DNA of 64,000 nucleotides from Escherichia coli (GTDB lineage: Bacteria > Pseudomonadota > Gammaproteobacteria > Enterobacterales > Enterobacteriaceae): NCBI RefSeq assembly GCF_030013205.1, contig NZ_CP122648.1; one strand, given 5' to 3'. The translations under genes and the position numbers were made by a program. Below are positions 593 through 28,402 of this stretch, in pieces. Position 1 is the stretch's first letter, and every line of letters begins with the position of its first letter. The notes beneath the pieces were generated by a model. The model was not told the DNA's origin. It searched no databases and saw nothing but the letters and a program-made list of their open reading frames with translations.

Positions 593-607
593 TCCGGCGT
601 TTCGGCA

Positions 608-2857: not shown

Positions 2858-2878
2858 TCGTACAGGGTAGTACAAATA

Positions 2879-2910
2879 AAAAAGGCACGTCAGATGACGT
2901 GCCTTTTTTC
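2879..2910 (+). terminator. rho-independent terminator after aspA
   Basis: GC hairpin ggcacgtc/gacgtgcc followed by T6. Confidence 0.6.
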
Positions 2911-2974
2911 TTGTGAGCAGTAACTTAAAAATAACAATCTAATATCAACTTGTTAAAAAACAAGGAAGGCTAAT

Positions 2975-4276
2975 ATGCTAGTTGTAGAACTCATCATAGT
3001 TTTGCTGGCGATCTTCTTGGGCGCCAGATTGGGGGGAATAGGTATTGGTTTTGCAGGCGGATTGGGGGTGCTGGTTCTTGCCGCTATTGGCGTTAAACCC
3101 GGTAACATCCCGTTCGATGTCATTTCCATTATCATGGCGGTTATCGCCGCTATTTCTGCCATGCAGGTTGCTGGCGGTCTGGACTATCTGGTTCATCAGA
3201 CAGAAAAGCTGCTGCGCCGTAACCCGAAATACATCACGATCCTCGCACCGATCGTGACCTATTTCCTGACTATCTTTGCTGGTACTGGCAACATCTCTCT
3301 GGCGACACTGCCAGTTATCGCTGAAGTTGCGAAGGAACAAGGCGTTAAACCTTGCCGTCCGCTGTCTACTGCAGTGGTATCCGCGCAGATTGCGATCACC
3401 GCATCGCCAATCTCAGCGGCAGTGGTTTACATGTCTTCCGTAATGGAAGGTCATGGCATCAGCTACCTCCATCTGCTCTCCGTGGTCATCCCGTCCACCC
3501 TGCTGGCGGTTCTGGTGATGTCCTTCCTGGTCACTATGCTGTTCAACTCCAAACTCTCTGACGATCCGATTTATCGCAAGCGTCTGGAAGAAGGCCTGGT
3601 TGAACTGCGCGGTGAAAAGCAGATTGAAATCAAATCCGGTGCAAAAACGTCCGTCTGGCTGTTCCTGCTGGGCGTAGTTGGCGTTGTTATCTATGCAATC
3701 ATCAACAGCCCAAGCATGGGTCTGGTTGAAAAACCGCTGATGAACACCACCAACGCAATCCTGATCATCATGCTCAGCGTTGCAACTCTGACCACCGTTA
3801 TCTGTAAAGTCGATACCGACAACATCCTCAACTCCAGCACCTTCAAAGCAGGTATGAGCGCCTGTATTTGTATCCTGGGTGTTGCATGGCTGGGCGATAC
3901 TTTCGTTTCCAACAACATCGACTGGATCAAAGATACCGCTGGTGAAGTGATTCAGGGTCATCCGTGGCTGCTGGCCGTCATCTTCTTCTTTGCTTCTGCT
4001 CTGCTGTACTCTCAGGCTGCAACCGCAAAAGCACTGATGCCGATGGCTCTGGCACTGAACGTTTCTCCGCTGACCGCTGTTGCTTCTTTCGCTGCGGTGT
4101 CTGGTCTGTTCATTCTGCCGACCTACCCGACGCTGGTTGCTGCGGTACAGATGGATGACACGGGTACTACCCGTATCGGTAAATTCGTCTTCAACCATCC
4201 GTTCTTCATCCCGGGTACTCTGGGTGTTGCCCTTGCCGTTTGCTTCGGCTTCGTGCTGGGTAGCTTCATGCTGTAA
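2975..4276 (+). CDS. dcuA: anaerobic C4-dicarboxylate transporter DcuA
   Basis: 433-aa polytopic membrane protein, paralogous to the DcuB ORF at 52105. Confidence 0.95.
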   Translation: MLVVELIIVLLAIFLGARLGGIGIGFAGGLGVLVLAAIGVKPGNIPFDVISIIMAVIAAISAMQVAGGLDYLVHQTEKLLRRNPKYITILAPIVTYFLTIFAGTGNISLATLPVIAEVAKEQGVKPCRPLSTAVVSAQIAITASPISAAVVYMSSVMEGHGISYLHLLSVVIPSTLLAVLVMSFLVTMLFNSKLSDDPIYRKRLEEGLVELRGEKQIEIKSGAKTSVWLFLLGVVGVVIYAIINSPSMGLVEKPLMNTTNAILIIMLSVATLTTVICKVDTDNILNSSTFKAGMSACICILGVAWLGDTFVSNNIDWIKDTAGEVIQGHPWLLAVIFFFASALLYSQAATAKALMPMALALNVSPLTAVASFAAVSGLFILPTYPTLVAAVQMDDTGTTRIGKFVFNHPFFIPGTLGVALAVCFGFVLGSFML

Positions 4277-7120: not shown

Positions 7121-7196
7121 GCCCGGATAGCTCAGTCGGTAGAGCAGGGGATTGAAAATCCCCGTGTCCTTGGTTCGATTCCGAGTCCGGGCACCA
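7121..7196 (+). tRNA. pheU: tRNA-Phe (anticodon GAA)
   Basis: 76-nt cloverleaf sequence GCCCGGATAGCTCAGTCGGTAGAGCAGGGGATTGAAAATCCCC...CCA; anticodon loop TTGAAAA. Confidence 0.95.
7174..7196 (+). repeat. attL core (3' end of pheU), duplicated at 38277-38298
   Basis: 23 nt ttcgattccgagtccgggcacca; 22 of these recur (one G fewer) at 38277. Confidence 0.75.
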
Positions 7197-7393: not shown

Positions 7394-8656
7394 ATGGCAC
7401 TGACTGACGCAAAAATCCGGGCTGCAAAGCCCACTGACAAGGCTTATAAACTCACTGACGGGGCCGGCATGTTCCTGCTGGTTCATCCTAATGGTTCCCG
7501 TTACTGGCGTCTCCGCTATCGTATTCTGGGTAAGGAGAAGACTCTGGCACTTGGTGTGTATCCAGAAGTTTCTCTCTCCGAAGCTCGTACAAAACGGGAT
7601 GAGGCCCGAAAACTGATTTCAGAGGGGATTGACCCTTGCGAACAGAAAAGAGCTAAAAAAGTTGTCCCTGATTTACAGCTCTCTTTTGAACATATTGCAC
7701 GACGCTGGCATGCCAGTAATAAACAATGGGCACAATCACACAGCGATAAAGTACTCAAAAGCCTCGAGACACACGTTTTCCCCTTTATCGGCAACCGGGA
7801 TATCACAACACTCAGTACCCCGGACCTGCTTATCCCTGTTCGTGCTGCAGAAGCTAAACAAATTTATGAAATCGCCAGTCGTCTGCAGCAAAGAATATCT
7901 GCTGTAATGCGTTATGCCGTACAGTCTGGCATCATCAGATATAACCCGGCTCTGGATATGGCTGGTGCATTGACCACGGTAAAACGCCAGCATCGCCCTG
8001 CACTGGATCTTTCACGCCTGCCTGAACTTCTGTCGCGTATTGACGGTTATAAAGGCCAGCCTGTCACCCGACTGGCAGTTATGCTGAATTTACTGGTTTT
8101 TATTCGTTCCAGTGAACTCAGATACGCCCGCTGGTCTGAAATTGATATTGACAATGCCATGTGGACTATTCCAGCCGAACGCGAACCTCTGCCTGGCGTA
8201 AAATTCTCACACCGGGGCTCCAAGATGCGAACACCACATCTTGTGCCACTCAGCAAACAGGCTGTAGCCATACTGGCAGAACTACAGACATGGGCTGGTG
8301 AAAATGGTCTGATCTTTACGGGAGCACATGACCCGCATAAACCAATCAGTGAAAATACTGTAAATAAAGCCCTGAGGGTGATGGGGTATGACACAACCCA
8401 GGATGTCTGTGGCCATGGATTCCGTGCGATGGCATGTAGTGCGCTGATCGAATCAGGTTTGTGGTCCCGCGATGCTGTTGAACGTCAGATGAGCCATCAG
8501 GAACGTAACGGTGTACGCGCTGCGTATATCCATAAAGCCGAACATCTGGAAGAACGCCGGCTGATGCTACAGTGGTGGGCAGATTTTCTGAATGCGAACA
8601 GAGAGAAATGTATCAGTCCGTTTGATTATGCAAAGATCAACAATCCATTAAAATAG
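7394..8656 (+). CDS. int: P4-type tyrosine integrase
   Basis: 420 aa directly downstream of tRNA-Phe; N-terminal MALTDAKIRAAKP... and C-terminal HGFRAMA...RAAY tyrosine-recombinase signature. Confidence 0.9.
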   Translation: MALTDAKIRAAKPTDKAYKLTDGAGMFLLVHPNGSRYWRLRYRILGKEKTLALGVYPEVSLSEARTKRDEARKLISEGIDPCEQKRAKKVVPDLQLSFEHIARRWHASNKQWAQSHSDKVLKSLETHVFPFIGNRDITTLSTPDLLIPVRAAEAKQIYEIASRLQQRISAVMRYAVQSGIIRYNPALDMAGALTTVKRQHRPALDLSRLPELLSRIDGYKGQPVTRLAVMLNLLVFIRSSELRYARWSEIDIDNAMWTIPAEREPLPGVKFSHRGSKMRTPHLVPLSKQAVAILAELQTWAGENGLIFTGAHDPHKPISENTVNKALRVMGYDTTQDVCGHGFRAMACSALIESGLWSRDAVERQMSHQERNGVRAAYIHKAEHLEERRLMLQWWADFLNANREKCISPFDYAKINNPLK

Positions 8657-10385: not shown

Positions 10386-11714
10386 ATGAGCCACAGGGAA
10401 TTGTTCAGCGAATTTCTTGAAAATTTGAATCTTGACCTCAAACAGGCAAAAAAGATCAGCTATCACTATCGAAAAATAACCAAGTCATTAAATCTTGCGT
10501 TCAGAGGAACGAGTTCCCGGGTAGCAAACCGCTTGAAAGTGGGGTCAGTAGGCAGACATACCGCAATAAAAGGCATATCCGATCTGGATATGCTTTATAT
10601 TATGCCCCCCAATCAGTATGAATATTATAACCGTAAGGATAATGGTCAGTCTGCATTGCTTACAGATGTCAGAAACATTCTGGCGGAAGAATATCCTGAC
10701 CAGACTGTGAAAAAGGACAGACTGGTTGTTCAGATCATCTTTAAAAACTTTTATGTCGAGGTTCAACCTGTATTCAGACAGGATGATGACAGCTTTAAAT
10801 TCCCTGAAAGCTATAATGGAGGAGCATGGCGCATTACAAAACCTCTTCACGAAAAGGCGGCCATGACCGCATTTTCGCGAGATAAATCCAATAATCTGCG
10901 CAAGCTGTGTAAAATGATCAGAGCCTGGAAGAACCTGCATGGCGTCAATATGGGTGGCTTACTGATAGACACACTAGCGTATCGCTTTCTTTCATCAACA
11001 TCAGATTATGACAATACCGGAAATGGCAGCCTGGGAGCCCTCGCCAGAGACTTTTTTGAATATCTGTCAAATGAGGAGAGAAAGGAAAGGTATCTCGCGT
11101 TAGGCAGTAATCAGCATGTACGTGTTAAATCTCCCTGGTTTGGCCGGGCAGCGAAACACGCGTATGAATTATGTTGTGATGCCTTAGACGCTGAGGGGGC
11201 TGCCAGTGAAAATGACCGCTGGCGCAAAGTGTTCGGACGAGCCTTCCCCAGACGTAAAGTGGGTATTATGGAAGCCCGTCTTGGTCTGGAATCGCATGCG
11301 GCAGATGCTGTTCCCTGGACCGATACCGAAGAGTTTATAGAGGATAAATATCCGGTGGATATCAGGTACTCACTCAACCTTGACTGTACCGTAACCCAGG
11401 ATGGTTTCCCTCCCAGAAGCCTGAGGGAGATGCTTACCAGAAGATTCCGCCTCTCCGCTCGAAAATCTCTCCTTTTCCGGGCAGACTTGACAGAAATGGA
11501 GGCAGAGGAACCCTACACCGTTATGTGGAAGGTACTGAACGTGGGTGACGAAGCACGCAGAAGAAATATGATCCGGGGACAAATCGTTTCGGACGGCGGC
11601 TACTGTACGAAGAAAGAAACTACCGACTTCCGCGGAGATCACATGGTAGAATGCTATGTGATAAAAAATGAGGTTGTGGTTGCCCGGGCCCAGATTGAAG
11701 TTCCCATAAGCTGA
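10386..11714 (+). CDS. Pol-beta-fold nucleotidyltransferase with C-terminal extension (SMODS/CD-NTase-like plus AGS-C-like region)
   Basis: ATG with SD aaagga; GS-x10-SDLD nucleotidyltransferase signature (VGSVGRHTAIKGISDLD); about 150-aa C-terminal extension; AT-rich gene. Confidence 0.6.
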   Translation: MSHRELFSEFLENLNLDLKQAKKISYHYRKITKSLNLAFRGTSSRVANRLKVGSVGRHTAIKGISDLDMLYIMPPNQYEYYNRKDNGQSALLTDVRNILAEEYPDQTVKKDRLVVQIIFKNFYVEVQPVFRQDDDSFKFPESYNGGAWRITKPLHEKAAMTAFSRDKSNNLRKLCKMIRAWKNLHGVNMGGLLIDTLAYRFLSSTSDYDNTGNGSLGALARDFFEYLSNEERKERYLALGSNQHVRVKSPWFGRAAKHAYELCCDALDAEGAASENDRWRKVFGRAFPRRKVGIMEARLGLESHAADAVPWTDTEEFIEDKYPVDIRYSLNLDCTVTQDGFPPRSLREMLTRRFRLSARKSLLFRADLTEMEAEEPYTVMWKVLNVGDEARRRNMIRGQIVSDGGYCTKKETTDFRGDHMVECYVIKNEVVVARAQIEVPIS

Positions 11715-11721
11715 GGTTTTT

Positions 11722-12297
11722 ATGACGCAATCAGAGATGCTGAAATTAATCGCCCGACATGGTTATAACGTTGGATTTGGCGCTAAGAAAAACTTTGCCA
11801 CCTATGATCTGATTTGTAAGGCATCCGGTTGGATTAGCTTTATTTCTCTTGCTGTCGGTGTGTTCGCCCTTTTTATTCCTGAGCTGGCCACAAACGTCAT
11901 TTCCGCGATATTAATTATATTTGGTGTTGCTACAATGTACATTCAGTTTTATGACTCGGAAAAGCAGAGTTATGAAAGTGCGGGGATTGAGCAGACCAAA
12001 ATTTTTAATGAACTTGAAGTCATCTACCGCAACGTAAAAAGCGATGCAAACTTTGACTATCAGCGTACACAACAATCCATCGACGCTATCATGTCCCGGT
12101 TTTACGGCACGGTCATCAGCAAACAGATCTTCGGAAGTAACTGGTACGCACATTATAAATTTTACTGTGAATTTGAAAAAGCATGGGTTGAAGAAGAGCT
12201 GAACCTGACACTGAAGGACAAAATCCCGCTTTCGCTCTGCTTTCTCGCCGGTCTGGCGATCATTTTTACTATAGCTGTCATCTGGAAAACGCCCTGA
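11722..12297 (+). CDS. small multi-TM membrane protein (SLATT-like predicted effector)
   Basis: 191 aa, starts 8 nt after the nucleotidyltransferase stop with SD gagg; two adjacent N-proximal hydrophobic helices and one C-terminal helix. Confidence 0.55.
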   Translation: MTQSEMLKLIARHGYNVGFGAKKNFATYDLICKASGWISFISLAVGVFALFIPELATNVISAILIIFGVATMYIQFYDSEKQSYESAGIEQTKIFNELEVIYRNVKSDANFDYQRTQQSIDAIMSRFYGTVISKQIFGSNWYAHYKFYCEFEKAWVEEELNLTLKDKIPLSLCFLAGLAIIFTIAVIWKTP

Positions 12298-12848: not shown

Positions 12849-13574
12849 TTATGATGTACATAATACCTTAAAATTATCAACTAGCTGAGCATTAACCTCC
12901 ATCTGACTAATCCCCCATAATGCGGCTAACTGTTTCTCTGCAATCCCACTATCCCATGGCATTAGTGGGTCATTACGAAACTTAGCAAATGGCCCATCTG
13001 TTTCTGTAAGAATGCGTGATTTGGGTATTTTCAAAACTAAGGCCTTACCCTTTATTGTATCGAGCATAGCAGGCCCCACTGAGAACCAGCATCCTAAATC
13101 AATTGCCCTTTCAAGCTGCTTAGGTGTTCCAGTGAACCAATGCAATATTGCCACCCCATCGATATTTTCAATCTCATCAAGCACCGCTGATGCACTTCCC
13201 CGACTATGGATAGTCATAATCTTGCCACCAGCCCGATTTACACTGTTGAGAATGTGTCGGAACACTTTCAATTGAATATCCCAATGTTCTTTAAATCCCT
13301 GTCCACCATCAAGCCCTATTTCCCCTACATACTTAGTTTCCGAAAGCAATGAATCAAACAGGTCTAACTCATGCGATCTTTGATGCGCGATTTGAGGATG
13401 TAGCCCAAGAGCAGTTCGGATTCGTTGACTTTCTTTAGCCAATAAAGAAGTACCATGCCATGCTTTAGGTGTTGTTGTCACCGACAGAATATAAGTCCCT
13501 CGACGTTTACTTTCTTCAGCCACGAGGTCTGGCCGAGGATATAAGTCTAGATGACAGTGCATATCGATGCTCAT
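12849..13574 (-). CDS. qatD: TatD-family metal-dependent DNase (QatD)
   Basis: 241 aa; N-terminal HxH metal motif (MSIDMHCHLDLYP); start ATG overlaps qatC stop (ATGA). Confidence 0.8.
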   Translation of the reverse strand: MSIDMHCHLDLYPRPDLVAEESKRRGTYILSVTTTPKAWHGTSLLAKESQRIRTALGLHPQIAHQRSHELDLFDSLLSETKYVGEIGLDGGQGFKEHWDIQLKVFRHILNSVNRAGGKIMTIHSRGSASAVLDEIENIDGVAILHWFTGTPKQLERAIDLGCWFSVGPAMLDTIKGKALVLKIPKSRILTETDGPFAKFRNDPLMPWDSGIAEKQLAALWGISQMEVNAQLVDNFKVLCTS

Positions 13575-14890
13575 ACTATGTTCTCACTCAGTAAATAGCT
13601 TTCAACCTCATCCAGGCCATCCTTAAATACTTGCTTGAAATTATCAAATTCTGCCGTAGGCAAAGGGCCACTTTTGGCAATCCATGTACCTATTTTCAAA
13701 GTCGATTTCTGCGTGATCGCAATCCTAAGGGCGATCAGGTCGTCCCTGCGATCTATTTCATTCATTACTTTAGCTAAGGACTGGAAAATATATTCAACAT
13801 CTCTACTAATTCCCCCTGCATGAAGTGATGCTCGTCGAATGATACACGGTATACATACCCCACATTGCTGCCCCATTCGTTTCCAATGACTGCAGGATAC
13901 TGTACTTTCCACAATTTTAGATAAGAGCTGCTTATTTGAACATTCGGAGATCATTTTTCCTTTTGTCTTAAACTGATATGGATTGATTATTTGACAAGAA
14001 ATACCGAGCGCATCAAAGATCTTTTGTATGCTCGTAATAAAATGTGGATGTGTTGTTCGTGTGCTCAGCGAACCTATCCGCCGTGGAGTAAGTGGTGCAT
14101 TTAATGAGATAAATCCATTTTCAGGTACGAACAAATCAATCTTTTCTTGTTGAGATATCTCTTGTACGGCACAAGCACCTACGGCCGCAAAGGCAAGAAA
14201 ATTGAGGCTACGAGTTCGCATCGTAATATCAGTCACGCCTTGATAAATGTGTGGGTCAGCATTAATCTCAAAGCGCGAAAATTGGCCACTTAATTTTTCA
14301 GCAATCTGATCTTGACGAGACTTATCCCCCTTATAAGCATGACTAACCAAAAGTGGAGCGCGCCCTGCAGCCAGAAGATCTATTGCACCAATAGCTGAAT
14401 CCAGACCTCCTGAAAATAGGCTGACACAGTCAAGCCCTTTTAGCTTAATCAGACGATGCCTTGAATGCTGGCTATAAGGCTCTGGCGGTGCATAACCATC
14501 GTCACAAAATTCGAAATCCCAGATGTCTCCACTAAGAAAATGCAAAGCACTCTCAAGTTCTTTCTTTAGACTAATCCATCTGGATGGTTCATGAAGGGGG
14601 AGTCGTAACGACAATTGGCGGGTCCAACCATCCTCGGAACTTTCACGCTGAACGAAAGTATCTGCTGCAGTTACTGCTAATGCAACACTCAGAAAATCCA
14701 TGACCTTAGCTGGAAGCTGTACTCCCAAACGTCTGATCCGATCAATCGCAGGATTCCCGATAACAGATATATCTCCGCGCCTCTGACCACTTAATCCATA
14801 TAGCTGAACAGGTAACACTTTCTCACTTGCTGGCGGCAAATGGTGATGTTTATGATGGAAAACTAATTGTGTCACTGGTATGCCTCCCAT
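13571..14890 (-). CDS. qatC: QueC-like PP-loop ATPase (QatC)
   Basis: 439 aa; PP-loop SGGLDS; C-terminal Cys cluster CSHW...CGVCIPC as in QueC. Confidence 0.8.
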   Translation of the reverse strand: MGGIPVTQLVFHHKHHHLPPASEKVLPVQLYGLSGQRRGDISVIGNPAIDRIRRLGVQLPAKVMDFLSVALAVTAADTFVQRESSEDGWTRQLSLRLPLHEPSRWISLKKELESALHFLSGDIWDFEFCDDGYAPPEPYSQHSRHRLIKLKGLDCVSLFSGGLDSAIGAIDLLAAGRAPLLVSHAYKGDKSRQDQIAEKLSGQFSRFEINADPHIYQGVTDITMRTRSLNFLAFAAVGACAVQEISQQEKIDLFVPENGFISLNAPLTPRRIGSLSTRTTHPHFITSIQKIFDALGISCQIINPYQFKTKGKMISECSNKQLLSKIVESTVSCSHWKRMGQQCGVCIPCIIRRASLHAGGISRDVEYIFQSLAKVMNEIDRRDDLIALRIAITQKSTLKIGTWIAKSGPLPTAEFDNFKQVFKDGLDEVESYLLSENIV

Positions 14891-15624
14891 TCTTGCCAGG
14901 CCTCAATAATGGCCTGACGTTCAATTTTTACCATTTGGTTTCGTGTGAACGATCTTATGTTACCGGCAAGTTTTGGTGCCATATGTTTATCAACAACAAC
15001 TTTAATCAATTCCCGGAGTTCAATTTCTGCATGAATTGCCTTTGAAGGTGTATCTGCTTTGTTCCATGCCCTATTAGAATCCATTACCATCTGAAGGAAA
15101 ATACTTTCCGCTAGATAACCAATCATTGTGTCAACAATCACACCATCAGTTATTTTTTGAGGATCGAAAATTTCTACGCCATCAAGAGCCTCCACTAAAG
15201 CATGGTTCATGGCCGCACAGATCTTTTCTGAGTCACCATCCTGTGATGTTAAAGCTTGAGCAATAGTTGATATTGCTATTTCGCATGGAAGGCCTGCCAA
15301 ACTGCCCAAATCGATGCTTGGTTCTCCGGGAGCCGAAGGCATTCCCACTAAAGCCCCAAATAATTCGGCCCCAGCTTGCGTGACACTCCCTAATCGCCGA
15401 GCAGCGTTACTGCTCCCTCCGGAGGCTTTTCGCGCGTAGTGCCCTATGGCTTTTCTGAAATCTGCTCGATTTCCATTTGATACCGCATTTCCCAACGATT
15501 CTCGAAATGGCGCAAACCTCCTTTCTTGCGGCGAGGGTAACGGTTGCTGTGGCTGATCATCAGCCCATGGTGGAACCAGCGGAGAGCCACCTCCTGGACC
15601 TTTACTTGATTGTGATGTTCCCAT
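14872..15624 (-). CDS. qatB: QatB (function unknown)
   Basis: 250 aa Gly/Pro-rich protein between the KAP ATPase and QueC-like genes; start overlaps qatA stop by 1 nt, 3' end overlaps qatC by 19 nt. Confidence 0.65.
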   Translation of the reverse strand: MGTSQSSKGPGGGSPLVPPWADDQPQQPLPSPQERRFAPFRESLGNAVSNGNRADFRKAIGHYARKASGGSSNAARRLGSVTQAGAELFGALVGMPSAPGEPSIDLGSLAGLPCEIAISTIAQALTSQDGDSEKICAAMNHALVEALDGVEIFDPQKITDGVIVDTMIGYLAESIFLQMVMDSNRAWNKADTPSKAIHAEIELRELIKVVVDKHMAPKLAGNIRSFTRNQMVKIERQAIIEAWQEWEAYQ

Positions 15625-17408
15625 TAAGCGTCCTTATTCCATTGTTCATCTTTTAATGCTGCAGTCATCCACGCTGGTCGTTTCATCCCCAACTGTAATT
15701 CCTGTAGATAACGAATTAATATGCTGGCTGCATCTGTTGAGTAGCGGGCCAACAGACATGCGCCGGAAAAGCCTCTGGGCTTACGATCCCAATCTGATAC
15801 CTGCCGTAACTGGTTAATTAAACCTTCCATTACAGGTATTTGCTCCTCACGAGGAAGTGCTTTCAAAAGGTTTTCTGCTGTAGGAGAACTAGTGTTTTTC
15901 AATTCAATTAGTGCATTTAGTACTTCCCGTCCAGATGGCGATAAACCAACCACATATGCACCTATTGGCATAGTTTCTCGGGACAGATATATGGCGGCCC
16001 TTAAGTCAATCCCACCAAGACGAGGTTCAAGTTGGGCCCATTGACTGATGAAAGATTTAGTCGTTGGACTATCAGTCCATGTCTTTGGTGCATCAGTAGG
16101 TATTTGACCGCCATTATCGTCAAGCTGTTTAAGTATCTGGGGAACACCTTGTTCAATATCCACGAGATGATATAAATCAGCGGTGCCATCCACTCCAACA
16201 CAGCGTTCAAAAATTACTAGCTTAGTAATAATTGCTTCATCCAAAGGCATTGCTCGTCGCTTCGCAATTTGAGATCGCATTTTCACAACATTCAACAAGC
16301 GTTTAACGATCCTGGGATTACCATGAATAATTGGAGAGTTGGCTAAAATGGGAGCAATACGGTCAGCACGCGCAAACGCCAGCGCGAGGTTGCTATCATC
16401 CGCTTCACCAGTCATTTTTAAGGCCTCCTGACGTGAGATTGGTTCATCTTTCCAGGATTGCTGTAACGCCTTCTCTAAGCCCTCACGGAGCATAGTTATT
16501 TTTTCGCCTTCTAAGCCATGTTCAATGGCATAAAGCATGAACAGATACGAACGGATCTCACGGACCCCAGCCTTAGGCACCCGAATAGGAACCTGGATTA
16601 GCTTATCCAGATAATCTATTTGATGGCGCTGTGATGCCCCTTTGAAGTAATCAGCCACAGAAGAGCGAATCATGTCCTCATCTGCTGCAATAATAAAGGC
16701 TGTATTAGTCAAGAAAAGGAATAGCCTGATAGCTTCAAGTGTATGGATAGCATTGGCAGGGAGACAGCGGTCTAGGTTATCTATTACCACAATGAGTGGC
16801 TTTCCAAGTTCTTCTAGAATTTCCCCATATTCCTTACGAAAGGCATCAATCTGCTGAGGGGGGCTTTTTTTTGTTTGTGGTTTAATCAAACCACAAGCAG
16901 TTTCTTTACCTTCTTTAGCTATATTGCCTAAAGCCTCATACTCTTCCTGACTCTGGATGCCATCGGTGATATTTCTTAATGCACCAATCCCCCTAGAAAG
17001 CAAACCGCCAGTAGGTAATCCTGCCATTAAAGCTGTACCCTCAGCTAGTAATCCCATAGCTCTAAAACCATCAACTCGACTAAGGAGTCTCTTAGTTTTT
17101 GATATAAGGGTAGAATTACCTTCAGCAGCTTTTGTCAATTCTGTAGCGATGACTTCAAGAAGTGCGGCACGGGCGTCGTCGTACCCCTGATAGAGCCAAG
17201 AGTCAAAATTGATAACAATCCAATCTTTGTCGTCTTGCTCAAGTTTTTGCTCTATCAGTTTTAACAGAGAGGATTTACCTGCCCCCCAGTTTCCAAAAAT
17301 TCCGATAGATACTGGTAACATATCTTTCGTGGTAAGTACATCCACGGCTAACTGAGATACTTCACCAAAATTTAGGTAGTCTTCTGATGACTCTTTGTCT
17401 GACCACAT
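15624..17408 (-). CDS. qatA: KAP-family P-loop NTPase (QatA)
   Basis: 594 aa; Walker A GNWGAGKSS near N-terminus. Confidence 0.8.
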   Translation of the reverse strand: MWSDKESSEDYLNFGEVSQLAVDVLTTKDMLPVSIGIFGNWGAGKSSLLKLIEQKLEQDDKDWIVINFDSWLYQGYDDARAALLEVIATELTKAAEGNSTLISKTKRLLSRVDGFRAMGLLAEGTALMAGLPTGGLLSRGIGALRNITDGIQSQEEYEALGNIAKEGKETACGLIKPQTKKSPPQQIDAFRKEYGEILEELGKPLIVVIDNLDRCLPANAIHTLEAIRLFLFLTNTAFIIAADEDMIRSSVADYFKGASQRHQIDYLDKLIQVPIRVPKAGVREIRSYLFMLYAIEHGLEGEKITMLREGLEKALQQSWKDEPISRQEALKMTGEADDSNLALAFARADRIAPILANSPIIHGNPRIVKRLLNVVKMRSQIAKRRAMPLDEAIITKLVIFERCVGVDGTADLYHLVDIEQGVPQILKQLDDNGGQIPTDAPKTWTDSPTTKSFISQWAQLEPRLGGIDLRAAIYLSRETMPIGAYVVGLSPSGREVLNALIELKNTSSPTAENLLKALPREEQIPVMEGLINQLRQVSDWDRKPRGFSGACLLARYSTDAASILIRYLQELQLGMKRPAWMTAALKDEQWNKDA

Positions 17409-17539: not shown

Positions 17540-18742
17540 CTATTTTTTAAAGAATGAAATAAGCTTTCTTATCCCAGTCCATATTTTCCTATCAGAATCC
17601 GAAGGGTTAAATTCGCTCTTGTCAAAATCAGCAACCTCAGCAACCTCAGCAACCTCAGCAACCTCAGCAACCTCAGCAACCTCAGCAACCTCAGCAACCT
17701 CAGCAACCTCAGCAACCTCAGCAACCTCAGCAACCTCAGCAACCTCAGCAACCTCAGCAAGGTTTATTCTATTTTGATGAGCTGTCAAATGTTCTTTGTT
17801 AATTTCATCTCTAATTAGCTGTTCTTTTTCTATGCTGTAGTTTTTGTCATTATAAGTCACATCAAAATCATCTAAGAAAACGATATAAATCAATTTAAAA
17901 AAACTAGTCTTAAATAAAAAACTATCGCACTCATCAGGAAAACCAAAAAAGAAAACATTAAGATATTTGGTTGCTTTGCGCTTGTCTTTTAGTCCATTAT
18001 AATACTTATTTGCTTCTGCTCTTTGTTTTTCATACTCACTACAGAAAAAACTCTTTTTACTTTCATCCCATTCTGAAGCATCAATTTCAAGTTTATATGC
18101 TTGTTTGGTACCTTTCTTTCTGGCTAAAAAAGTAAGGTAATATCTATTCGAATTTATCTCCAGCCGTATATTAGATTGAATTTTACCAAAATAAATTGCT
18201 GGCTTATTATATCTAATTCCTTCTTTATAGATGATTAGTTGAAAAGTATCTTTATAAGTTCTAACTCCATAAGGGGGAATTGATAATGGTTCATAGAGAT
18301 TATCTCCATTAATGTAGTAGTCTACTACCGGTTTGATGCTTGAAGATGACACAGGGTGTACTTTACCTCCCAAATCTTTTTCATCATCTCGCGTCTGTTT
18401 GATAATTCTTCTGCCAGAAGAGTCGTAATTTCTTTCAGACACATCAAGTTTCAGAAGAGATATAGCTAATGCCGGTGGTGAATTATGCTTTTTATTATTC
18501 TTTGAGTTACACTTATTTTTACTCTTAGGATCATGAATCTTACATCCCGGCCTATGAGTCTCTTTATATCGAAAGTATGATTGATTTAAATTTATTTCTT
18601 TGAAGCTACATGGAGTAGCGGGTATCCTACATTTGTCATACGGGCATTCAAAAGTGGTTGTTCGTATATAAAGATCATCCATTTCCCGAAGATCATGACC
18701 ATGAACAATTTCACCACTAACAGAATCTCTTGCTATTGTCAC
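17540..18742 (-). CDS. hypothetical protein with N-terminal Cys cluster and C-terminal (Ala-Glu-Val)n repeat
   Basis: 400 aa; GTG start preceded by perfect SD AAGGAG at 5-nt spacing; C33/C38/C45/C67 with flanking His; AT-rich; co-directional with qatA 131 bp downstream. Confidence 0.6.
   Translation of the reverse strand: MTIARDSVSGEIVHGHDLREMDDLYIRTTTFECPYDKCRIPATPCSFKEINLNQSYFRYKETHRPGCKIHDPKSKNKCNSKNNKKHNSPPALAISLLKLDVSERNYDSSGRRIIKQTRDDEKDLGGKVHPVSSSSIKPVVDYYINGDNLYEPLSIPPYGVRTYKDTFQLIIYKEGIRYNKPAIYFGKIQSNIRLEINSNRYYLTFLARKKGTKQAYKLEIDASEWDESKKSFFCSEYEKQRAEANKYYNGLKDKRKATKYLNVFFFGFPDECDSFLFKTSFFKLIYIVFLDDFDVTYNDKNYSIEKEQLIRDEINKEHLTAHQNRINLAEVAEVAEVAEVAEVAEVAEVAEVAEVAEVAEVAEVAEVAEVADFDKSEFNPSDSDRKIWTGIRKLISFFKK
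17628..17760. repeat. perfect 9-bp tandem repeat (gcaacctca), about 14.8 copies, in-frame within the 400-aa CDS
   Basis: Direct reading of sequence; encodes the AEV repeat on the minus strand. Confidence 0.97.
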
Positions 18743-18980
18743 ACAATCTCCTTTGATAAAAATTAATAGATTCTAATTTCATACCAAGGCTAATTTAAAT
18801 AAAGGCTATTTAAGAGAAAAACAAGTCAGCCTGACAGACATATCCCCTCCCATGGCAATATGCCGCTATTTCGCGTTTTTTTTCACGCCATAATGCGTTT
18901 CAAGGTAGCGAATATCTTCGATTGCCCATGGTGTGCGCATTCTTTTGGGTTTATTTTCCATTACCATGTTTTATCAGCCA

Positions 18981-19190
18981 TCATGGCAGCCTCTCCGGTT
19001 TGCCAGCGTGTTCCACCTGATAACGATTAATCAGCTGATTCAGTGCCATTTCAGCCTGTTTTTGCTGCTGTTCACTGCCATTCTGGTTACGGGCTTCATC
19101 ATAGCGACGTAACTGCTCTTCCGCCGGGATATGCCGGTTAAAAGCCTGCATGATGCCAAACACCTCTGTTTTCAGTTCACTGACCGTCAT
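18981..19190 (-). CDS. small hypothetical protein
   Basis: 69 aa from internal ATG with SD gggga (track ORF 84 aa); Gln/Glu-rich helical sequence. Confidence 0.4.
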   Translation of the reverse strand: MTVSELKTEVFGIMQAFNRHIPAEEQLRRYDEARNQNGSEQQQKQAEMALNQLINRYQVEHAGKPERLP

Positions 19191-19950
19191 GTATTTTCCC
19201 CGCTGTTCATCCAGACGGTTCAGGCGCTCAGCCATCCGCGGCCTGAAGAGATAAAGGCGATAATAAAACAGACATCAGTGTCAGTGACAGCAAGGACGGA
19301 CAGCGCCGGAATAAGCTTTGTTCCTCAGCCCTCACGTTCCTGCAACATAATTTTCCAGCCAAACGAAAAACCTTTTATTCATGCCATACCAATAATCGCC
19401 AGCCTCCTGGCGATGCCTCCCACCATGTTTTGCAGTGGTACGCTACCGCCCTTCCGGTATTTACCCGCATCAACCGGTACCAGAATGCTGAGTAACAAAC
19501 CAGCTCAGAACTGACTGAATTTTGATCATTATAGAATAATGATCTGAACTGCAGCAATATAACAGATTTATCGATCGATATAACGCAAATGAACAGATCT
19601 TTATTCTGTCATATATCGCAAAAACAGCACATTACAAAATTTATAACCATAATTAATGGAAAAGTGCAGAAAATTATTCCACTGAATGCTTTTAATACAG
19701 TTAGTTAGCTAAAAAAATAGCAATTTTTGATTTCAGTCATTGAAAATTGCAATGCGTGACGATTCAACAGCATTTAAGTGAGTTTCAGGATATGGGAAGG
19801 ACATGAAAGGAGGAGCGCAATAAAATATACAGGAAGAAGGGGAAAATGTTTCGTAAAAACAGAAAATTAACAGCGCACATCAGGAAACTCAGTCTCCTGA
19901 TTCAGTGCTACCACATGAAAATTTAGTTAACTGTTACCGTACTAAAATTT

Positions 19951-20523: not shown

Positions 20524-21159
20524 TCAGAGATGGTATGCCGGTACTTTGCGGGTTGTTCCTGTCAGGTTATCGTGCACCTCCACGGTCGTGGTCACCACCG
20601 GCATTCCGGCCTTTCTCAGCCTCAGAACATCAGCCGCAATACGCTGACTGCCAAACCAGAACAGGCCGTCCAGTGCAGTCACCAGTAAACCCGCCTCCAG
20701 TGCATACTTCAGCCGTTCACGGGGCGCTTTCACTTCCCGGGCAACCTGCTGATATGGCAATGATGTGTTTTCATTCCCAACCACGCGACGAATACGGTGA
20801 GACAGATGATACCGGAATGTATCCGGCACACCAGAAAGGCTGGCCTTCAGGCTGTACACGCAACCAAACCGTTTATCGTTAAACACCACATTTTTCTGGC
20901 TGATGCCCCATTCTTCACGCAGCGCGGCAATCAGTTGTGGTGTCCGGGTAAGCAGCAAGCGAAAAGGCAGTTCAAAACTGGTGACGTAATCCACATTCAG
21001 CAGTGCAATACGCAGCCGTTCTTCTGGCCCGGCCTCTGTCTGCCGGCACTCCTCCAGAACATCCTGCCACTGCTGGCGAAGACGGGGCGATTCGCTCCGT
21101 TCTGTAAAACAGTATTTATCCGCCAGATAGTCAATTTGTGTACGCATACTGAAGAGCAT
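20524..21159 (-). CDS. hypothetical island protein
   Basis: Long ORF (219 aa from a TTG); first ATG at 21159; start uncertain. Confidence 0.4.
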   Translation of the reverse strand: MLFSMRTQIDYLADKYCFTERSESPRLRQQWQDVLEECRQTEAGPEERLRIALLNVDYVTSFELPFRLLLTRTPQLIAALREEWGISQKNVVFNDKRFGCVYSLKASLSGVPDTFRYHLSHRIRRVVGNENTSLPYQQVAREVKAPRERLKYALEAGLLVTALDGLFWFGSQRIAADVLRLRKAGMPVVTTTVEVHDNLTGTTRKVPAYHL

Positions 21160-21456
21160 TCCGTATAAAGATTCAGCTGACAAAACTTTATCAGTCCATA
21201 AGAATCAACGGAAGCACCGATGGTTCACTTGGTCATCGCCAAGTTTTGCCATAACCGGTAGCAATGATCATTCTGTGTAACTATTTGGCCCACAGATGAT
21301 GATGTTTATCGATGTCTCCTCTGTCTGAATGTCGCATAAAGAGGATCATCAGCAGACACAGCCAGTGAACCACCGTCCGCGGAACAAAGCGCCGGACCAC
21401 ATCCGGATCCGGCAGGGACATGACTGGCATGATCAAGTAATTATGTCGCATCTCCC

Positions 21457-21870
21457 TCACTCCTGGTCCCGGAGCAAATCTGGCTGGTATCTGTAAACAT
21501 ACTTCGTACATGCCGCTCTGCAATAAATCCCCGTATCACAGGTTTCACAGAACTTCTTCCCATGAAAAAGCCTCTCGCACATCACGCAATGCCACTCCAG
21601 CACGACAGGTAATGGCGATAAAAACATCGCCATATCATCAATGTAAGGATGGGATTTTTCCGGATTCAGCACCACGCAGGCCGCCTTCTGTTGCGCGCTC
21701 AGGGCATGTAAATCATGCTCAAACCACGCCCCCTGAGCATCTGTCTGCAAAATCAACCGGCCACGACAGGAAAGGCAGAAACACTGCCGGATATTTCTGC
21801 TGAGCGCAGAGTTGGCACTGATAATGTGCTCACCCGGCGTGATCCCCAGCCCCATTTTTATGCCGTTCAT
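21457..21870 (-). CDS. Cys/His-rich small protein (putative zinc-binding)
   Basis: 137 aa with multiple CxxC pairs; ATG overlaps upstream gene stop (ATGA). Confidence 0.5.
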   Translation of the reverse strand: MNGIKMGLGITPGEHIISANSALSRNIRQCFCLSCRGRLILQTDAQGAWFEHDLHALSAQQKAACVVLNPEKSHPYIDDMAMFLSPLPVVLEWHCVMCERLFHGKKFCETCDTGIYCRAACTKYVYRYQPDLLRDQE

Positions 21871-22256
21871 CCTGCTACCACCTCCTCACTGAAGCGCCCG
21901 GTCTGGCAGTGTGTGCAGTACTGCTCCCCATAATAATCGTGGTGACATTGTCTGCAGTACCAGCTGGCTTTACGTACTACGGGTAAGGCATCCGGTACGA
22001 ATTGCTGCAGACGTTTAATCAAACGTATTTCTCTGCGTTCCGGTCTGACATAAGGGCACTCATGACCGTGCTCAGTCAGCCCATCGTCAGTGTGTTCAAA
22101 CCAGGGACGTTCAGTGTCGTATTGCGGGTGGTATCTGAGTGCACTGCCACAAAGATGACAGGTATAACGATCATATGGCGCAGTCTGTGCGGTACGGGCA
22201 CCGGTCAGACGTCCGTTGCCATCAAATGCGAGAAAAGATTTTGCGTACATAGTCAT
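21867..22256 (-). CDS. Cys/His-rich small protein (putative zinc-binding)
   Basis: 129 aa; SD gagga; CHLCG...CPY...CRQCHH...CTHCQ motifs. Confidence 0.55.
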   Translation of the reverse strand: MTMYAKSFLAFDGNGRLTGARTAQTAPYDRYTCHLCGSALRYHPQYDTERPWFEHTDDGLTEHGHECPYVRPERREIRLIKRLQQFVPDALPVVRKASWYCRQCHHDYYGEQYCTHCQTGRFSEEVVAG

Positions 22257-22509
22257 ATTCCTCAGCCGCCAGACGACACGCAGGCAACAGCCGTCCCGGT
22301 ACGGGCAGCGTGGTCAGGGTGTGAATGGCGGTTCAGTTAAAATCTGGACTGGAGTTTGGGTAAAGCAGGCTGGTTGCTGTTACAGCACTGTGGTTGTCAC
22401 ACAATGGAACACTGACGTAAAAAACAGTCCGTGGGCGAGTGGATACATCGTTGCTGCCAGACAACAACCCATACTTTTGGTTTGCCGGGTATTGGCGCGC
22501 CAGTCGTGC

Positions 22510-23079
22510 TCAACTCCGGCTACAGCCAAAATTACGCTCACCGGTACCGTTGACTTTGGTGTACTCTTTCGCGAGATAGTCAGCACGGTTCAGCATATCC
22601 CGTAAACCAGCATCATCATCGCGTTCCAGCCACACCACCGGCCTGGCCGGAAAATGCACCAGCGTGGCATAGCATCCGGCATCCACCCCCAGGGCACTGC
22701 ACCACGCCTGTTTAATCATCCCGGCCAGTGACCCCGGATCGCGGTAATCGCCCGCACCACACCAGGTATCACGGTTGACCAGCAGTATCAGGTGATAGTG
22801 TTTTTTACCCCTGAGCACCCCGAATTCCCGGGCCCAGACGTAATGCAGCCTTGTGGTATGTACGCGTTTACCTTCACGGCGCTTACGCTTCTGGTAAGCA
22901 TCGATTCGGGCTTTCAGGGCATTGATGAAGCGGGATATCACTGCTGCGTCAGTTGCTGCCGGTACATCCGGGAGACGCAGGTCAACCCGCAATGCCGTCA
23001 GACGGGGATGAACATCAAGTGCGCGCAGCACCGTCTCACGGATACGTTGTTGCCAGAAGGGTTTGTACTCGTGTGTCAT
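22510..23079 (-). CDS. YagK/YfjJ-family (inovirus Gp2-like) protein
   Basis: 189 aa; SD ggag; resembles YfjJ-type proteins of CP4-57-like elements (from memory). Confidence 0.55.
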   Translation of the reverse strand: MTHEYKPFWQQRIRETVLRALDVHPRLTALRVDLRLPDVPAATDAAVISRFINALKARIDAYQKRKRREGKRVHTTRLHYVWAREFGVLRGKKHYHLILLVNRDTWCGAGDYRDPGSLAGMIKQAWCSALGVDAGCYATLVHFPARPVVWLERDDDAGLRDMLNRADYLAKEYTKVNGTGERNFGCSRS

Positions 23080-23282
23080 GGTTAAATCTCCGTATGGTTT
23101 CGTTCATACGGAATAACCACGCCGTTAAAAATGCGCAGAGTCCCTGAAGTGATCGCCAACCAGGCAATATCTCAGGCACCCGGTGATAACCCGACAGTCG
23201 TCTCCGGACTGACGGCTGAATTTTCAGCGTTGTTTTTTTAATGCAAAAAGCCGGTTACGGGGAAGGTTGTGAGGAGGACGTG

Positions 23283-23480
23283 ATGGTGATACGCCAAACG
23301 GTGTGCAGGGATTGTGATAACGCCATCCCTCATAATACGGAATGTTGCCCGAGCTGCGCGTCAACAGCTTCCTCAGGCTATTACCGAAATACCGATCGTC
23401 TGCTCTTTCTACTGACGTTACTGTCTGTGCTGATTCTGGCTGTCGTTTCAGGCGTCAGTGTATTTGTACTGTTGCGGTAG
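23283..23480 (+). CDS. small zinc-ribbon membrane protein
   Basis: 65 aa from ATG with strong SD gaggagg; CxxC...CCPSC followed by a C-terminal TM helix. Confidence 0.4.
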   Translation: MVIRQTVCRDCDNAIPHNTECCPSCASTASSGYYRNTDRLLFLLTLLSVLILAVVSGVSVFVLLR

Positions 23481-24733: not shown

Positions 24734-24940
24734 ATGAATATCCCAGTTTCACTGATGGATGACCAGATGGTCGACATGGCGTTTATCACTCAACTGACCG
24801 GCTTAACCGATAAGTGGTTTTACAAGCTCATCAAGGATGGTGCCTTTCCAGCCCCCATCAAACTCGGCCGCAGCTCCCGATGGCTGAAAAGTGAAGTGGA
24901 AGCCTGGTTGCAGGCGCGTATTGCTCAGTCCCGTCCGTAA
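24734..24940 (+). CDS. alpA: AlpA-family phage transcriptional regulator
   Basis: 68 aa from ATG with SD aagga; HTH, ...RSSRWLKSEVEAWL... typical of AlpA/Vis. Confidence 0.7.
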   Translation: MNIPVSLMDDQMVDMAFITQLTGLTDKWFYKLIKDGAFPAPIKLGRSSRWLKSEVEAWLQARIAQSRP

Positions 24941-25712: not shown

Positions 25713-27218
25713 TTATGACCGAAAGAATTGCTCTTTCCATTCTCTCAGTTTCTGGCTGTGATAGCCCTGCTCGTAACACGCCTTCAACTCAGAGAACGTG
25801 ATATTGTTTACTCTGGAAAGCAGGACATAGGTTGTTTTACCTTCTCTCTCAAAGGAAAGCTTTAACTGAGACGCAAGAATGTTCAACAGTGCGTTCAGTT
25901 TTTTTCTGTTTCTGAAACGCCCCGGGCCACACTGGAGAATATAATTTTTCCTGACACGAGGCGGGCATTCTCCGCGGCACTCCTCAATGAGCCAGTCGAG
26001 CAGCTCCTGTGCGTCCTGCAGCTGCAGTTCAGATTCATCAGGTAACGCAAATAATTTTTTATATTCATCTGTGTACCACGAACTTATTACGACAGCAGAC
26101 GTCATGATATCGGCAGTAATTTTCCCTTCCCCCTGACTGAAATACTGCAATAATGCAGCAATTCTCGCAATGTTTTCTGTTTTTTTTGAAACATGTCCCC
26201 GAAACGCACTTAACGGACCGGAAGGAGATAAATCCTGCTCAAGAACATTATAGTGCTCAATAAATATTTTTTGCGCTTCAGGCGAAAAATGCAGACAATA
26301 CCGTTCATCCTTACTGGATTTTTCAATACTGGCTCTGGCCAGTTCCATTAATCGTTCATGAAATGCCGTTAACGATCCTCCCGGGGTCACAGCTCCGTTA
26401 ATAAAGCGTTTCCCCTGCGTGCTTGCAGGTTTACTGATAAGGCAACGGGCAAGAAAACCACTGTCTCTGGCAACAGCACCTTTTCGCTCCATATATCGGT
26501 CAAAAAGACCGGGTTGCACCATGAGGGATAACGTCATTCTGGCATTTTCAATCATCTGTTCGGGTTCATTCTTTCTGTCCACAGACAACACTGAGCCATC
26601 CCACATTTTGTTAATAAAAGGCAACTCAGACAGGGTATATCCATCAAATATAATACCAGCTTCATCTGACATAATACCAACTGAACGCCATTTACCACAA
26701 AGCTGATTCTTAATTGCCGCAGTCGTGGCATCATTAACAATGAATTTATACCTCACAGGTTCTTCCGCACTGTTTTTCTGAAGTACTTCCAGTTGTCTGA
26801 GGGTTTCTGACTCATCCGCGCCTTTGCGGAGTTCTTTATTCAGTTTTGACAACAATGCTTTTTTCTGAGCCTTTAAAAGCTCTTCCTTGTTTTTCCAGAC
26901 AGCCAGTTCACTTTTGTATCTGGAATATAACTGCATCTCCTGCTGGTACAGGGGCTTCATTAATAATTTGTCCACTGCGGTTTTTCGTTCTCCGGACTCG
27001 GCAAGCGTCAGGAAAAAAAGAGAAACCGGCCCCCGCAGTGTATTCAGTCTGCAGACATCAATCAGATTCTGGCAGACAAGTGAAACAGCGCCCAGTGCAG
27101 ATGCTGCCACAAGCCCAAGGGGAGCCTGCGTAATTTGCTGAGCTTCAATAACGGCATCACGAATGAGTGGAGGCAGCGAACTCAGGGGGAACTCATCACA
27201 AGGCTGACCGAATGACAT
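25713..27218 (-). CDS. DUF3987-like (YfjI-family) island protein
   Basis: 501 aa from ATG 27218 with SD tgaggt (track ORF starts at upstream TTG); follows alpA as in CP4-57-like elements. Confidence 0.5.
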   Translation of the reverse strand: MSFGQPCDEFPLSSLPPLIRDAVIEAQQITQAPLGLVAASALGAVSLVCQNLIDVCRLNTLRGPVSLFFLTLAESGERKTAVDKLLMKPLYQQEMQLYSRYKSELAVWKNKEELLKAQKKALLSKLNKELRKGADESETLRQLEVLQKNSAEEPVRYKFIVNDATTAAIKNQLCGKWRSVGIMSDEAGIIFDGYTLSELPFINKMWDGSVLSVDRKNEPEQMIENARMTLSLMVQPGLFDRYMERKGAVARDSGFLARCLISKPASTQGKRFINGAVTPGGSLTAFHERLMELARASIEKSSKDERYCLHFSPEAQKIFIEHYNVLEQDLSPSGPLSAFRGHVSKKTENIARIAALLQYFSQGEGKITADIMTSAVVISSWYTDEYKKLFALPDESELQLQDAQELLDWLIEECRGECPPRVRKNYILQCGPGRFRNRKKLNALLNILASQLKLSFEREGKTTYVLLSRVNNITFSELKACYEQGYHSQKLREWKEQFFRS

Positions 27219-28402
27219 AGTAACCTCACTACATACAGATATAAAAGCACTGCAATTTTGGCTATTAATAGCAAAAATAGCAGTCAAATCAATATGAGGT
27301 AAAAATTTTTGTTGATTTAATGGTTAAATAATAACCACAGTGTGTTTTGCTGCTGAAGAAAGACAAAATGAATCTGTGTGTCCCCTCCTTCCCTTCGGAG
27401 CATATCTACTGTTCAAATTTTACACAATCACGTACAAACAAAAAGCATCATCCCGGGTATTGCAGATACCGGTTTCCTGCCGGGAAGAATCATAAACAGA
27501 AAACCCGGAATAACACCTTCAGAAAGCGACTTCCCTCCTGAAGAATAATAAAGAAGACGATAATTCCTGTCCTGAATTCGATATTTCATGGATATGACGC
27601 CATTTTTATAAATGACAAAAAAGCATTTAATGCTGACACATCAGGAAAAACAAAATAATACCCCCCTGCCGATACAGATAAAACACACCAATTTTCTTTG
27701 AATGCTCCCGCATAATTGTCAGACAGTGATAAAAATGGGTTATGACAATCTTTCTTCAACAAAAACCTGTCTTCTGTTTTTTTACATCAGCATCCTGCTT
27801 AAATTAAACGTAAACGAGCACAGCATTTCTGTACCAGAACTAAAAATCAGCTATTATTCAGCACCCTCAATCAATAAAATCTCAACAATATTATCCGGAA
27901 CAGCATGGTACCTCTATCAAAGGTTTTTAACAGGACAATTAACATTACTGAACAGCCTTCCTGCAGAACCACTGCAAATATAAAACCAGGGCGCAGGATA
28001 AATAATCACACCCTGAAAAATGCTGTCACACAAAAAAAAATTAATCACTGCACATAATCCGGAAGCGAAATACCAAACAACCCGGTATCAACAGGTATCA
28101 TTGCGTGCGCCACTCTTATAAAAAACACACAGCAGAAGTAAGATAATTATAAACGTAATTTTAATATCTCTCTGCCCCCCACAAAAAAACACTGAAAAAA
28201 AAATACTCACATCAGTAAACATGAGCACACCTGATAATCAGGCTGTCAGAGGAATGATATTTCCCTTTTACGGGATAGTCAGCCCGCCATTGAACAATGT
28301 TCAAATCGATTCAAAATAATTTCAGACAGATATTATCGTTGTGAGTCCCCCGCCACCTTTCCGGTACGCGGGATTTTGTCTTTTTTCACCGGGAATACAT
28401 GT

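Follow-up and report, generated by a model that had tools for sequence, protein, structure and literature searches.

Related systems

The two genes considered here, for which ZrA (upstream) and ZrB (downstream) serve as working names, encode small Cys/His-rich proteins and lie beside a YfjJ-family gene in a genomic island of Escherichia coli, within a stretch of 64,000 nucleotides (contig NZ_CP122648.1 of assembly GCF_030013205.1) that is called the window throughout. Their family (Zr) is already catalogued and very common in E. coli, and has no assigned function: ZrA and ZrB are ordinary members, with no difference, of the Pfam families DUF7828 and Zn_ribbon_11 and of the 'putative zinc ribbon protein' entry of the Prokaryotic Genome Annotation Pipeline (PGAP). 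Literature searches for the Zr family, YfjJ, YagK, inovirus Gp2 and the ECs137x genes returned no functional study. To this catalogue the present analysis adds the paralogy of the two genes, a pattern of conserved A and variable B copies, and their place in a conserved cassette with an HUH-like gene.

In CoiA, the nuclease of competence and transformation, a putative N-terminal zinc finger precedes a DNA nuclease domain (bioRxiv 10.1101/2024.02.06.579203). The Zr proteins share with this finger a CxxC knuckle, a beta-hairpin and an aromatic-x-His motif; they differ in that the fourth ligand, judged by conservation, would be Cys65 instead of a second His, and in that they lack the PD-(D/E)XK nuclease (PF06054) and the CoiA C-terminal domain and add a four-cysteine (C4) ribbon. 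The two zinc domains account for the full 127 and 137 residues, leaving no room for a nuclease. In an alignment of 38 diverse Zr relatives (mean column identity 20%), 13 members match the CoiA_N profile (PF25164) at E up to 1, the best with E 6.9e-5, and Zr residues of about 18-54 align to profile positions 7-42. Two members inspected score 18.8-19.6 bits, below the gathering cutoff of 26.3, and ZrA itself gives no match at E up to 1. Membership of the CoiA family is thus ruled out by the sub-cutoff scores and the missing nuclease domain; the DUF7828 core appears weakly and remotely akin to CoiA_N, the sole remote relationship found.

P2 Ogr and P4 Delta are likewise small zinc-binding proteins of enterobacterial integrase-type elements, and in both cases the unit is duplicated, P4 Delta being a covalent double Ogr and the Zr genes standing in tandem. 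The Zr proteins differ from them in lacking any sequence or profile similarity (no match to Ogr_Delta, PF04606, at E up to 0.1 for ZrA and ZrB, nor at E up to 1 across the 38 relatives), in being about twice the size of Ogr, and in the cysteine spacing of their ribbon, CxxC-x9-CxxC, from which that of the Ogr motif departs.

The islands around the Zr genes have a counterpart in the Pseudomonas tmRNA-site (transfer-messenger RNA gene) islands I23, I44 and I55. These carry a terminal integrase (IntY), variable defense cargo and a core of AlpA, an inovirus Gp2-like (YfjJ-type) gene and RadC, and their mobility has been shown by transduction with a jumbo phage (bioRxiv 10.1101/2024.08.29.610337). 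The text read mentions no zinc protein, and the Zr family is essentially one of Enterobacterales.

A pair of paralogs with predicted translational coupling

The pair and its immediate neighborhood comprise the following features:

21867..22250, minus strand: ZrA, 127 residues, DUF7828 plus Zn_ribbon_11 (RefSeq WP_000270991.1)
21457..21870, minus strand: ZrB, 137 residues, DUF7828 plus Zn_ribbon_11, 'B/other' clade (RefSeq WP_001013297.1)
21867..21887, minus strand: coupling junction, in which the ZrA stop (TGA) and the ZrB start (ATG) overlap as ATGA (21867-21870), with the Shine-Dalgarno sequence inside ZrA
22251..22509, minus strand: spacer of 259 bp between yfjJ and ZrA; alpA occupies the same position in several related islands
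22510..23079, minus strand: YfjJ-family ('inovirus Gp2 family') gene, 189 residues, upstream of ZrA (YagK_YfjJ_C, PF11726, E 1.8e-45)

Both proteins are composed of the same two modules. DUF7828 (PF25165; gathering cutoff 25.7 bits) is matched by ZrA with 105.2 bits (E 1.4e-30) and by ZrB with 78 bits (E 4.3e-22), nearly the whole 87-position model being covered, and Zn_ribbon_11 (PF11682; cutoff 24 bits) with 33.8 and 52.6 bits, respectively; all these scores are far above the cutoffs. The sequences are 30% identical to one another (E 2e-10), and on this comparison, together with the shared two-domain architecture, they are classed as paralogs, a relationship absent from the first-pass annotation of this DNA. 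RefSeq contains 100% identical counterparts of both window proteins, entered as 'putative zinc ribbon protein' in E. coli O157:H16 98-3133.

The first-pass annotation had described two open reading frames (ORFs) of 129 and 137 residues, downstream of a YfjJ-family gene and overlapping by ATGA, as a translationally coupled pair of zinc-ribbon type. The minus-strand overlap, the YfjJ neighbor and the length of ZrB all hold. The 129 residues of ZrA correspond to the first ATG (22256; 21867..22256 in the ORF list), and the second ATG, at 22250, is more likely the true start, because the GAGG at 22263-22260 lies 9 nt from it as against 3 nt from the first, because RefSeq uses it, and because homologs in other genera begin with MYAKSF or MFAKSF. 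With regard to coupling, a GAGGAGG Shine-Dalgarno sequence is situated at 21887-21881, within the 3' end of ZrA and 10 nt before the ZrB ATG. By the combination of overlapping stop and start codons with an internal ribosome-binding site, the two genes are assigned as translationally coupled, as had been proposed.

The spacer between yfjJ and ZrA contains no AlpA remnant detectable by tblastn, no promoter-like site and no notable repeat. A sigma-70 promoter scan produced matches at chance expectation, with no site upstream of either yfjJ or ZrA, and an Rfam search of 18.5-28.5 kb gave nothing relevant.

Conserved candidate zinc ligands and predicted fold

Cysteine and histidine together make up 11.8% of ZrA and 11.7% of ZrB, compared with a mean of 6.0% (standard deviation 2.6%) for the 99 ORFs of at least 100 residues in the window. 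Only these two reach at least 11%, and only these two possess at least three CxxC motifs; their richness in Cys and His is not a matter of chance. Each protein contains three CxxC motifs, as the earlier description of several such motifs in each would have it, and the two CxH motifs that occur are both in ZrA, so that the attribution of CxH to both proteins does not stand for ZrB.

Examination of the 38-member alignment reveals invariant columns at C31, C34, F51, H53, C65 and W97 (ZrA numbering) and nearly invariant ones at C99, C102, G108, C112 and C115. All seven cysteines of ZrA fall in conserved ligand columns, and ZrB has equivalents. Since eight candidate ligands are conserved, the alignment suggests two tetrahedral zinc sites per protein, one of CCHC type (C31, C34, H53, C65) and the other of CCCC type (C99, C102, C112, C115).

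The AlphaFold2 (AF2) monomer model of ZrA has a predicted local distance difference test score (pLDDT) of 90.6 and a predicted template modeling score (pTM) of 0.81. In this confident model, short beta-hairpins surround the first CxxC and the WFEH strand; there are also a pair of short helices and, at the C-terminus, a ribbon of three strands. Comparison of this model with solved and viral structures disclosed none that resembles the whole fold. Protein Data Bank (PDB) sequence and profile searches with the Zr proteins returned zinc-ribbon matches at chance level only (E at least 0.18); in PADLOC-DB neither the two Zr proteins nor YfjJ match any model (E up to 0.01), and no PHROG family matches the Zr proteins. 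The profile searches, which the first-pass annotation had proposed among its checks, uphold its zinc-ribbon designation, with an N-terminal CCHC-type DUF7828 domain in addition, and neither protein falls into a well-characterized housekeeping family, the outcome that would have told against the earlier reading.

A conserved cassette with YfjJ and AlpA

To follow the genes across genomes, loci were fetched and searched with custom Zr and YfjJ profiles. Wherever the flank suffices, the Zr gene or pair has a co-oriented YfjJ gene no more than about 0.7 kb away, usually accompanied by AlpA. The five distant single-copy Zr genes (about 25-30% identical to ZrA) are arranged as YfjJ-AlpA-Zr or AlpA-YfjJ-Zr on one strand; where these single-copy loci have enough flank, variable cargo follows (Gabija-like and other defense genes), and two of them include an integrase. 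Superficieibacter, Yokenella and a 342-kb Klebsiella plasmid display the order YfjJ-AlpA-ZrA-ZrB-YfjJ2, and Salmonella and Mixta the order ZrA-ZrB-YfjJ2. On a 5.4-kb contig of Serratia sp. Ag1, the order is AlpA, YfjJ, a Zr gene of 160 residues, Zr fragments, YfjJ, ZrA and ZrB, a repetition from which it follows that the YfjJ-Zr cassette can duplicate in tandem. Exceptions to the cassette are contig ends and a remnant in E. coli B, in which the Zr pair was kept and YfjJ deleted. The two K-12 loci examined, yfjJ and yagK, have no Zr neighbor.

In related islands AlpA is located inside a YfjJ-AlpA-Zr operon, whereas in the window it is detached:

24735..24940, plus strand: AlpA-family regulator or excisionase, apart from the Zr operon and on the opposite strand

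The YfjJ partner itself shows several invariant motifs among 10 homologs that are 22-83% identical: R31 and D33 (RVDL), H94-Y95-H96 (HUH-like), and Y168 and K171 (YLAK). This motif set is the pattern of HUH nucleases. The match of YfjJ to Pfam REP_ORF2-G2P, at 24.8 bits, is under the cutoff of 27.8, and a PDB search gave one weak match, to a SIRV1 ORF119 chain (E 0.13), aligned over the HYH motif. YfjJ is accordingly described here as a putative HUH nickase, and a catalytic role for the partner is plausible because the HUH-like and Tyr motifs remain invariant over so wide a range of identity.

Conserved ZrA, variable ZrB

In a neighbor-joining tree the sequences split into two clades, a tight one ('A') and a diverse one ('B/other'). 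The former contains the first gene of every tandem pair, and the latter every second gene and all single-copy genes in the tree; some divergent A-clade members are single or apart from a second copy. The genes of a pair overlap by 4 nt in Escherichia and by 13 nt in Mixta, Superficieibacter, Yokenella, Salmonella and Klebsiella; in other genera the 13-nt junction reads ATGCGTATGCTGA, with GGAGGTGA ahead of it. For ZrA, most comparisons give a ratio of nonsynonymous to synonymous substitution rates (dN/dS) of 0.07-0.22; the ratio is 0.32 for ZrB and ranges over 0.13-0.55 for YfjJ. ZrA, with the lowest values of the three, is under purifying selection, and the Serratia and E. coli proteins are still 65% identical. 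ZrB is far more changeable: where ZrA is 89% identical between E. coli islands, the accompanying ZrB alleles share only about 30% identity, and in some strains ZrB is a frameshifted pseudogene or is disrupted or truncated by an insertion sequence (IS).

Four ZrB-type members (P0170, P0172, P0178 and P0193) look like mosaics, with the N-terminal half of one E. coli allele and the C-terminal half of the other. Each forms a single-member cluster, and their sequences suggest either intragenic recombination or assembly chimeras.

A heterodimer of ZrA and ZrB is plausible from the coupling. A single-chain AF2 model of ZrA-(GGGGS)6-ZrB, built on a paired, padded alignment and without predicted aligned error (PAE) values, lends it no structural support: pTM is 0.45 and mean pLDDT 70.8, and the halves fold with no confident packing against each other.

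Distribution of the family

The region is matched in 3828 of 5426 complete E. coli genomes, at a median of two places per genome. An exhaustive HMMER search of 1.84 billion representative proteins returned only 262 Zr clusters at E up to 1e-3, so that the family is small. Among the best 150 of the 262, members are mostly 40-170 residues long, with two exceptions of 203 and 238 residues, and none of those that were inspected is fused to another domain. The named sources comprise Escherichia, Salmonella, Citrobacter, Klebsiella, Enterobacter, Serratia, Edwardsiella, Mixta, Yokenella, Superficieibacter and Erwinia, and from these the family appears essentially confined to Enterobacterales. A genome-collection scan with one narrow peptide pattern gave 10 loci, and its taxonomic counts are not exhaustive. 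No Zr relative was detected in 50,697 phage records, and only 33 of 72,556 plasmid records contain one.

Zr genes 85-90% identical to those of E. coli also occur on short metagenome contigs labeled Collinsella and Bacillota, and another member (P0090) is labeled Veillonella; these labels most likely reflect contamination of the bins by Enterobacteriaceae DNA. The 238-residue member (P0226) joins a ribbon-less DUF7828 unit covalently with a complete Zr unit, the sole double of this kind seen, and may be a gene-fusion artifact.

Proposed function and alternatives

Our tentative proposal is that the Zr proteins may assist the YfjJ nickase as accessory zinc-finger subunits when the island replicates or is transferred. 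ZrA and ZrB each probably bind two zinc ions, through a CoiA_N-like CCHC finger and a C4 ribbon. Excision of the island would be driven by AlpA, after which YfjJ would nick the DNA in the course of replication or transfer; the Zr proteins would target or control YfjJ through recognition of a partner protein, of DNA or of a structure in DNA. In this scheme ZrA is the constant component, whereas ZrB varies and can be exchanged.

An accessory role for YfjJ is favored above all by the conserved association with YfjJ and AlpA and by the type of finger, which in CoiA precedes a DNA nuclease. It is supported further by the dN/dS of ZrA, the lowest of the three genes compared, and by the preservation of the coupling in two forms, with the 4-nt and the 13-nt overlap. 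The absence of the family from phages and its rarity on plasmids fit an island-specific function, and the comparable Pseudomonas islands demonstrably move (bioRxiv 10.1101/2024.08.29.610337).

Several observations weigh against the proposal. Between linked island genes, synteny is weak evidence of physical contact. The Zr proteins are near-neutral (pI, the isoelectric point, 5.1-9.1, with a mean of about 7.2), unlike typical DNA binders. YfjJ genes occur without Zr, as in K-12 yfjJ and yagK, and therefore do not generally require it. The fused model, in which the halves did not pack confidently, points in the same direction, and the combination of near-identical ZrA with ZrB alleles about 30% identical argues against a tightly co-evolved heterodimer; ZrB, moreover, is frameshifted or IS-truncated in some strains. 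Finally, a repeat search near the genes revealed no origin-like repeats or hairpins.

A more elaborate version, to which we give less credence than to the accessory role as such, would unite YfjJ, the conserved ZrA and the exchangeable ZrB in a three-part initiator of rolling-circle replication or single-strand transfer, the zinc-finger subunits providing site or structure specificity in trans. If true, it would explain the movement of the capsid-less, conjugation-less 'cryptic' islands of CP4-57/CP4-44 type, and it would constitute the initiator of the commonest defense-carrying island family in E. coli and its relatives.

It is rather improbable that the Zr proteins are island transcription factors in the manner of P2 Ogr and P4 Delta, which would contact RNA polymerase and, acting downstream of AlpA, turn on genes of the island or of a helper phage. 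Small zinc-type proteins beside AlpA in an integrase-type island invite the comparison, the tandem paralogs and the fused P0226 echo the double-Ogr Delta, and a near-neutral charge suits protein-protein contacts. The profile evidence speaks otherwise: there is no Ogr_Delta match at E up to 1, and the spacing of the ribbon is unlike that of the Ogr motif. The island, furthermore, lacks late or structural genes that such a factor could turn on, and the family has no relative in phages.

About equally improbable is a role as counter-defense or as host- or phage-targeting inhibitors, by which they would bind and block a protein belonging either to the host or to a competing element. An antirestriction protein and RadC are encoded on the same island, and the ZrB-type genes, highly variable between otherwise similar islands and positioned at the edge of the defense cargo, recall an arms race. 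Against this, ZrA is strongly conserved (65% between Serratia and E. coli), the genes are tightly linked to YfjJ and not to the antirestriction/RadC block, and neither a PADLOC match nor similarity to a known anti-defense fold was obtained. Candidate anti-defense and DNA-binding roles had both been raised in the first-pass annotation.

The conserved adjacency and co-orientation with YfjJ could also be read the other way, with the Zr proteins as negative regulators, antitoxin- or addiction-like, that would keep the nickase off until induction. Translational coupling would then fix the stoichiometry, and E. coli B retains the Zr pair where YfjJ was deleted. We consider this unlikely: the K-12 homologs of YfjJ stand alone without apparent toxicity, several strains do without ZrB while retaining YfjJ, and no toxin-antitoxin family is matched. 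That the genes are what is left of a cryptic element, in decay and without function, is hardly credible. Degradation is frequent in such islands, and some strains have ZrB as a pseudogene or interrupted by an IS; yet dN/dS lies well under 1, the same ligands recur without exception from genus to genus, conservation extends to the coupling junction, and about 70% of complete E. coli genomes carry the region, at a median of two copies.

The accessory role for YfjJ, if correct, would make the Zr proteins a concrete handle on the replication and spread of these islands after excision. The region lies in the core of islands by which anti-phage systems are delivered, in this case Qat and a nucleotidyltransferase-SLATT pair. 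If the Zr proteins are not cofactors of YfjJ, they add two further members to a small family that is already catalogued.

The surrounding island

The remaining features of the island are as follows:

7121-7196: tRNA-Phe, the start of the island
7394-8656: tyrosine integrase, adjoining tRNA-Phe
10386-12297, plus strand: pair of nucleotide-binding (442 residues) and SLATT (191 residues) proteins, by the RefSeq annotation of an identical island
12849-17408, minus strand: Qat anti-phage system, with QatD, QatC, a 250-residue protein and the KAP NTPase QatA
17540-18742, minus strand: ORF of 400 residues with a run of Ala-Glu-Val repeats (9-nt tandem repeat at about 17619-17760)
20524-21183, minus strand: ECs1377-family gene (NCBIfam, 327 bits), after the 56-residue ORF
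21281..21451, minus strand: hypothetical ORF of 56 residues, starting 6 nt past the ZrB stop
23241-23480, plus strand: small zinc-type ORF, divergent from yfjJ, with CxxC...CxxC and then a hydrophobic C-terminal helix
23819-24031, minus strand: Hha/YmoA-family nucleoid-associated modulator, between yfjJ and alpA
25713-27287: DUF3987/YfjI, with PHROG helicase and primase matches

The core follows the order DUF4222, ECs1377, 56-residue ORF, ZrB, ZrA, YfjJ, Hha, AlpA, a 190-residue protein and YfjI/DUF3987, and continues after YfjI with a YeeP-like GTPase, Ag43, DUF932, the antirestriction protein, RadC, CbeA, DUF5983 and DUF4942. It has in common with P4-like satellites, to which the locus had initially been likened, a tRNA-adjacent tyrosine integrase, AlpA and an alpha-like helicase/primase (DUF3987/YfjI). 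That likeness extends no further: Psu, Sid and Delta were found neither in the RefSeq annotation of a near-identical island nor in Pfam scans of the island ORFs (some small ORFs lay outside the scans). Because they are missing, the island is classified by its gene content as one of CP4-57/CP4-44 type and not as a P4 satellite.

Within the cargo, the KAP NTPase QatA (15624-17408) aligns with the PADLOC model for QatA from end to end (1133 bits), and the 442-residue nucleotide-binding protein and the 191-residue SLATT protein probably constitute a two-gene defense module. The 400-residue ORF that adjoins Qat belongs to no Pfam family and shows a weak PADLOC match to PD-Lambda-4_B (E 4e-6); a third CoiA-like finger, considered in this protein, was rejected, since profile comparison with the Zr family gave a probability of 0.08. 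At about 18750-19950, the island of the window is without about 7 kb that are present in the otherwise identical island of E. coli O157:H16 98-3133 (L001 12219-17976) and encode a GIY-YIG nuclease and a 3'-5' exonuclease beside fragments of type VI secretion system (T6SS) genes; hence the window derives from a different strain or island variant.

Downstream of ZrB, the segment 20195-21451 (minus strand) contains three small genes: the 56-residue ORF, the ECs1377-family gene and one for a short acidic protein. No function is assigned to them, and they may share the ZrB operon. The ECs1377-family protein has a weak winged-helix match at its C-terminus.

On the other side of the pair, the Hha/YmoA gene is kept in several related E. 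coli islands. The ORF at 23241-23480 represents a third small zinc protein of the module, unrelated in sequence to ZrA and ZrB, and a 66-residue homolog in another strain is annotated by RefSeq as a 'zinc-ribbon domain-containing protein'.

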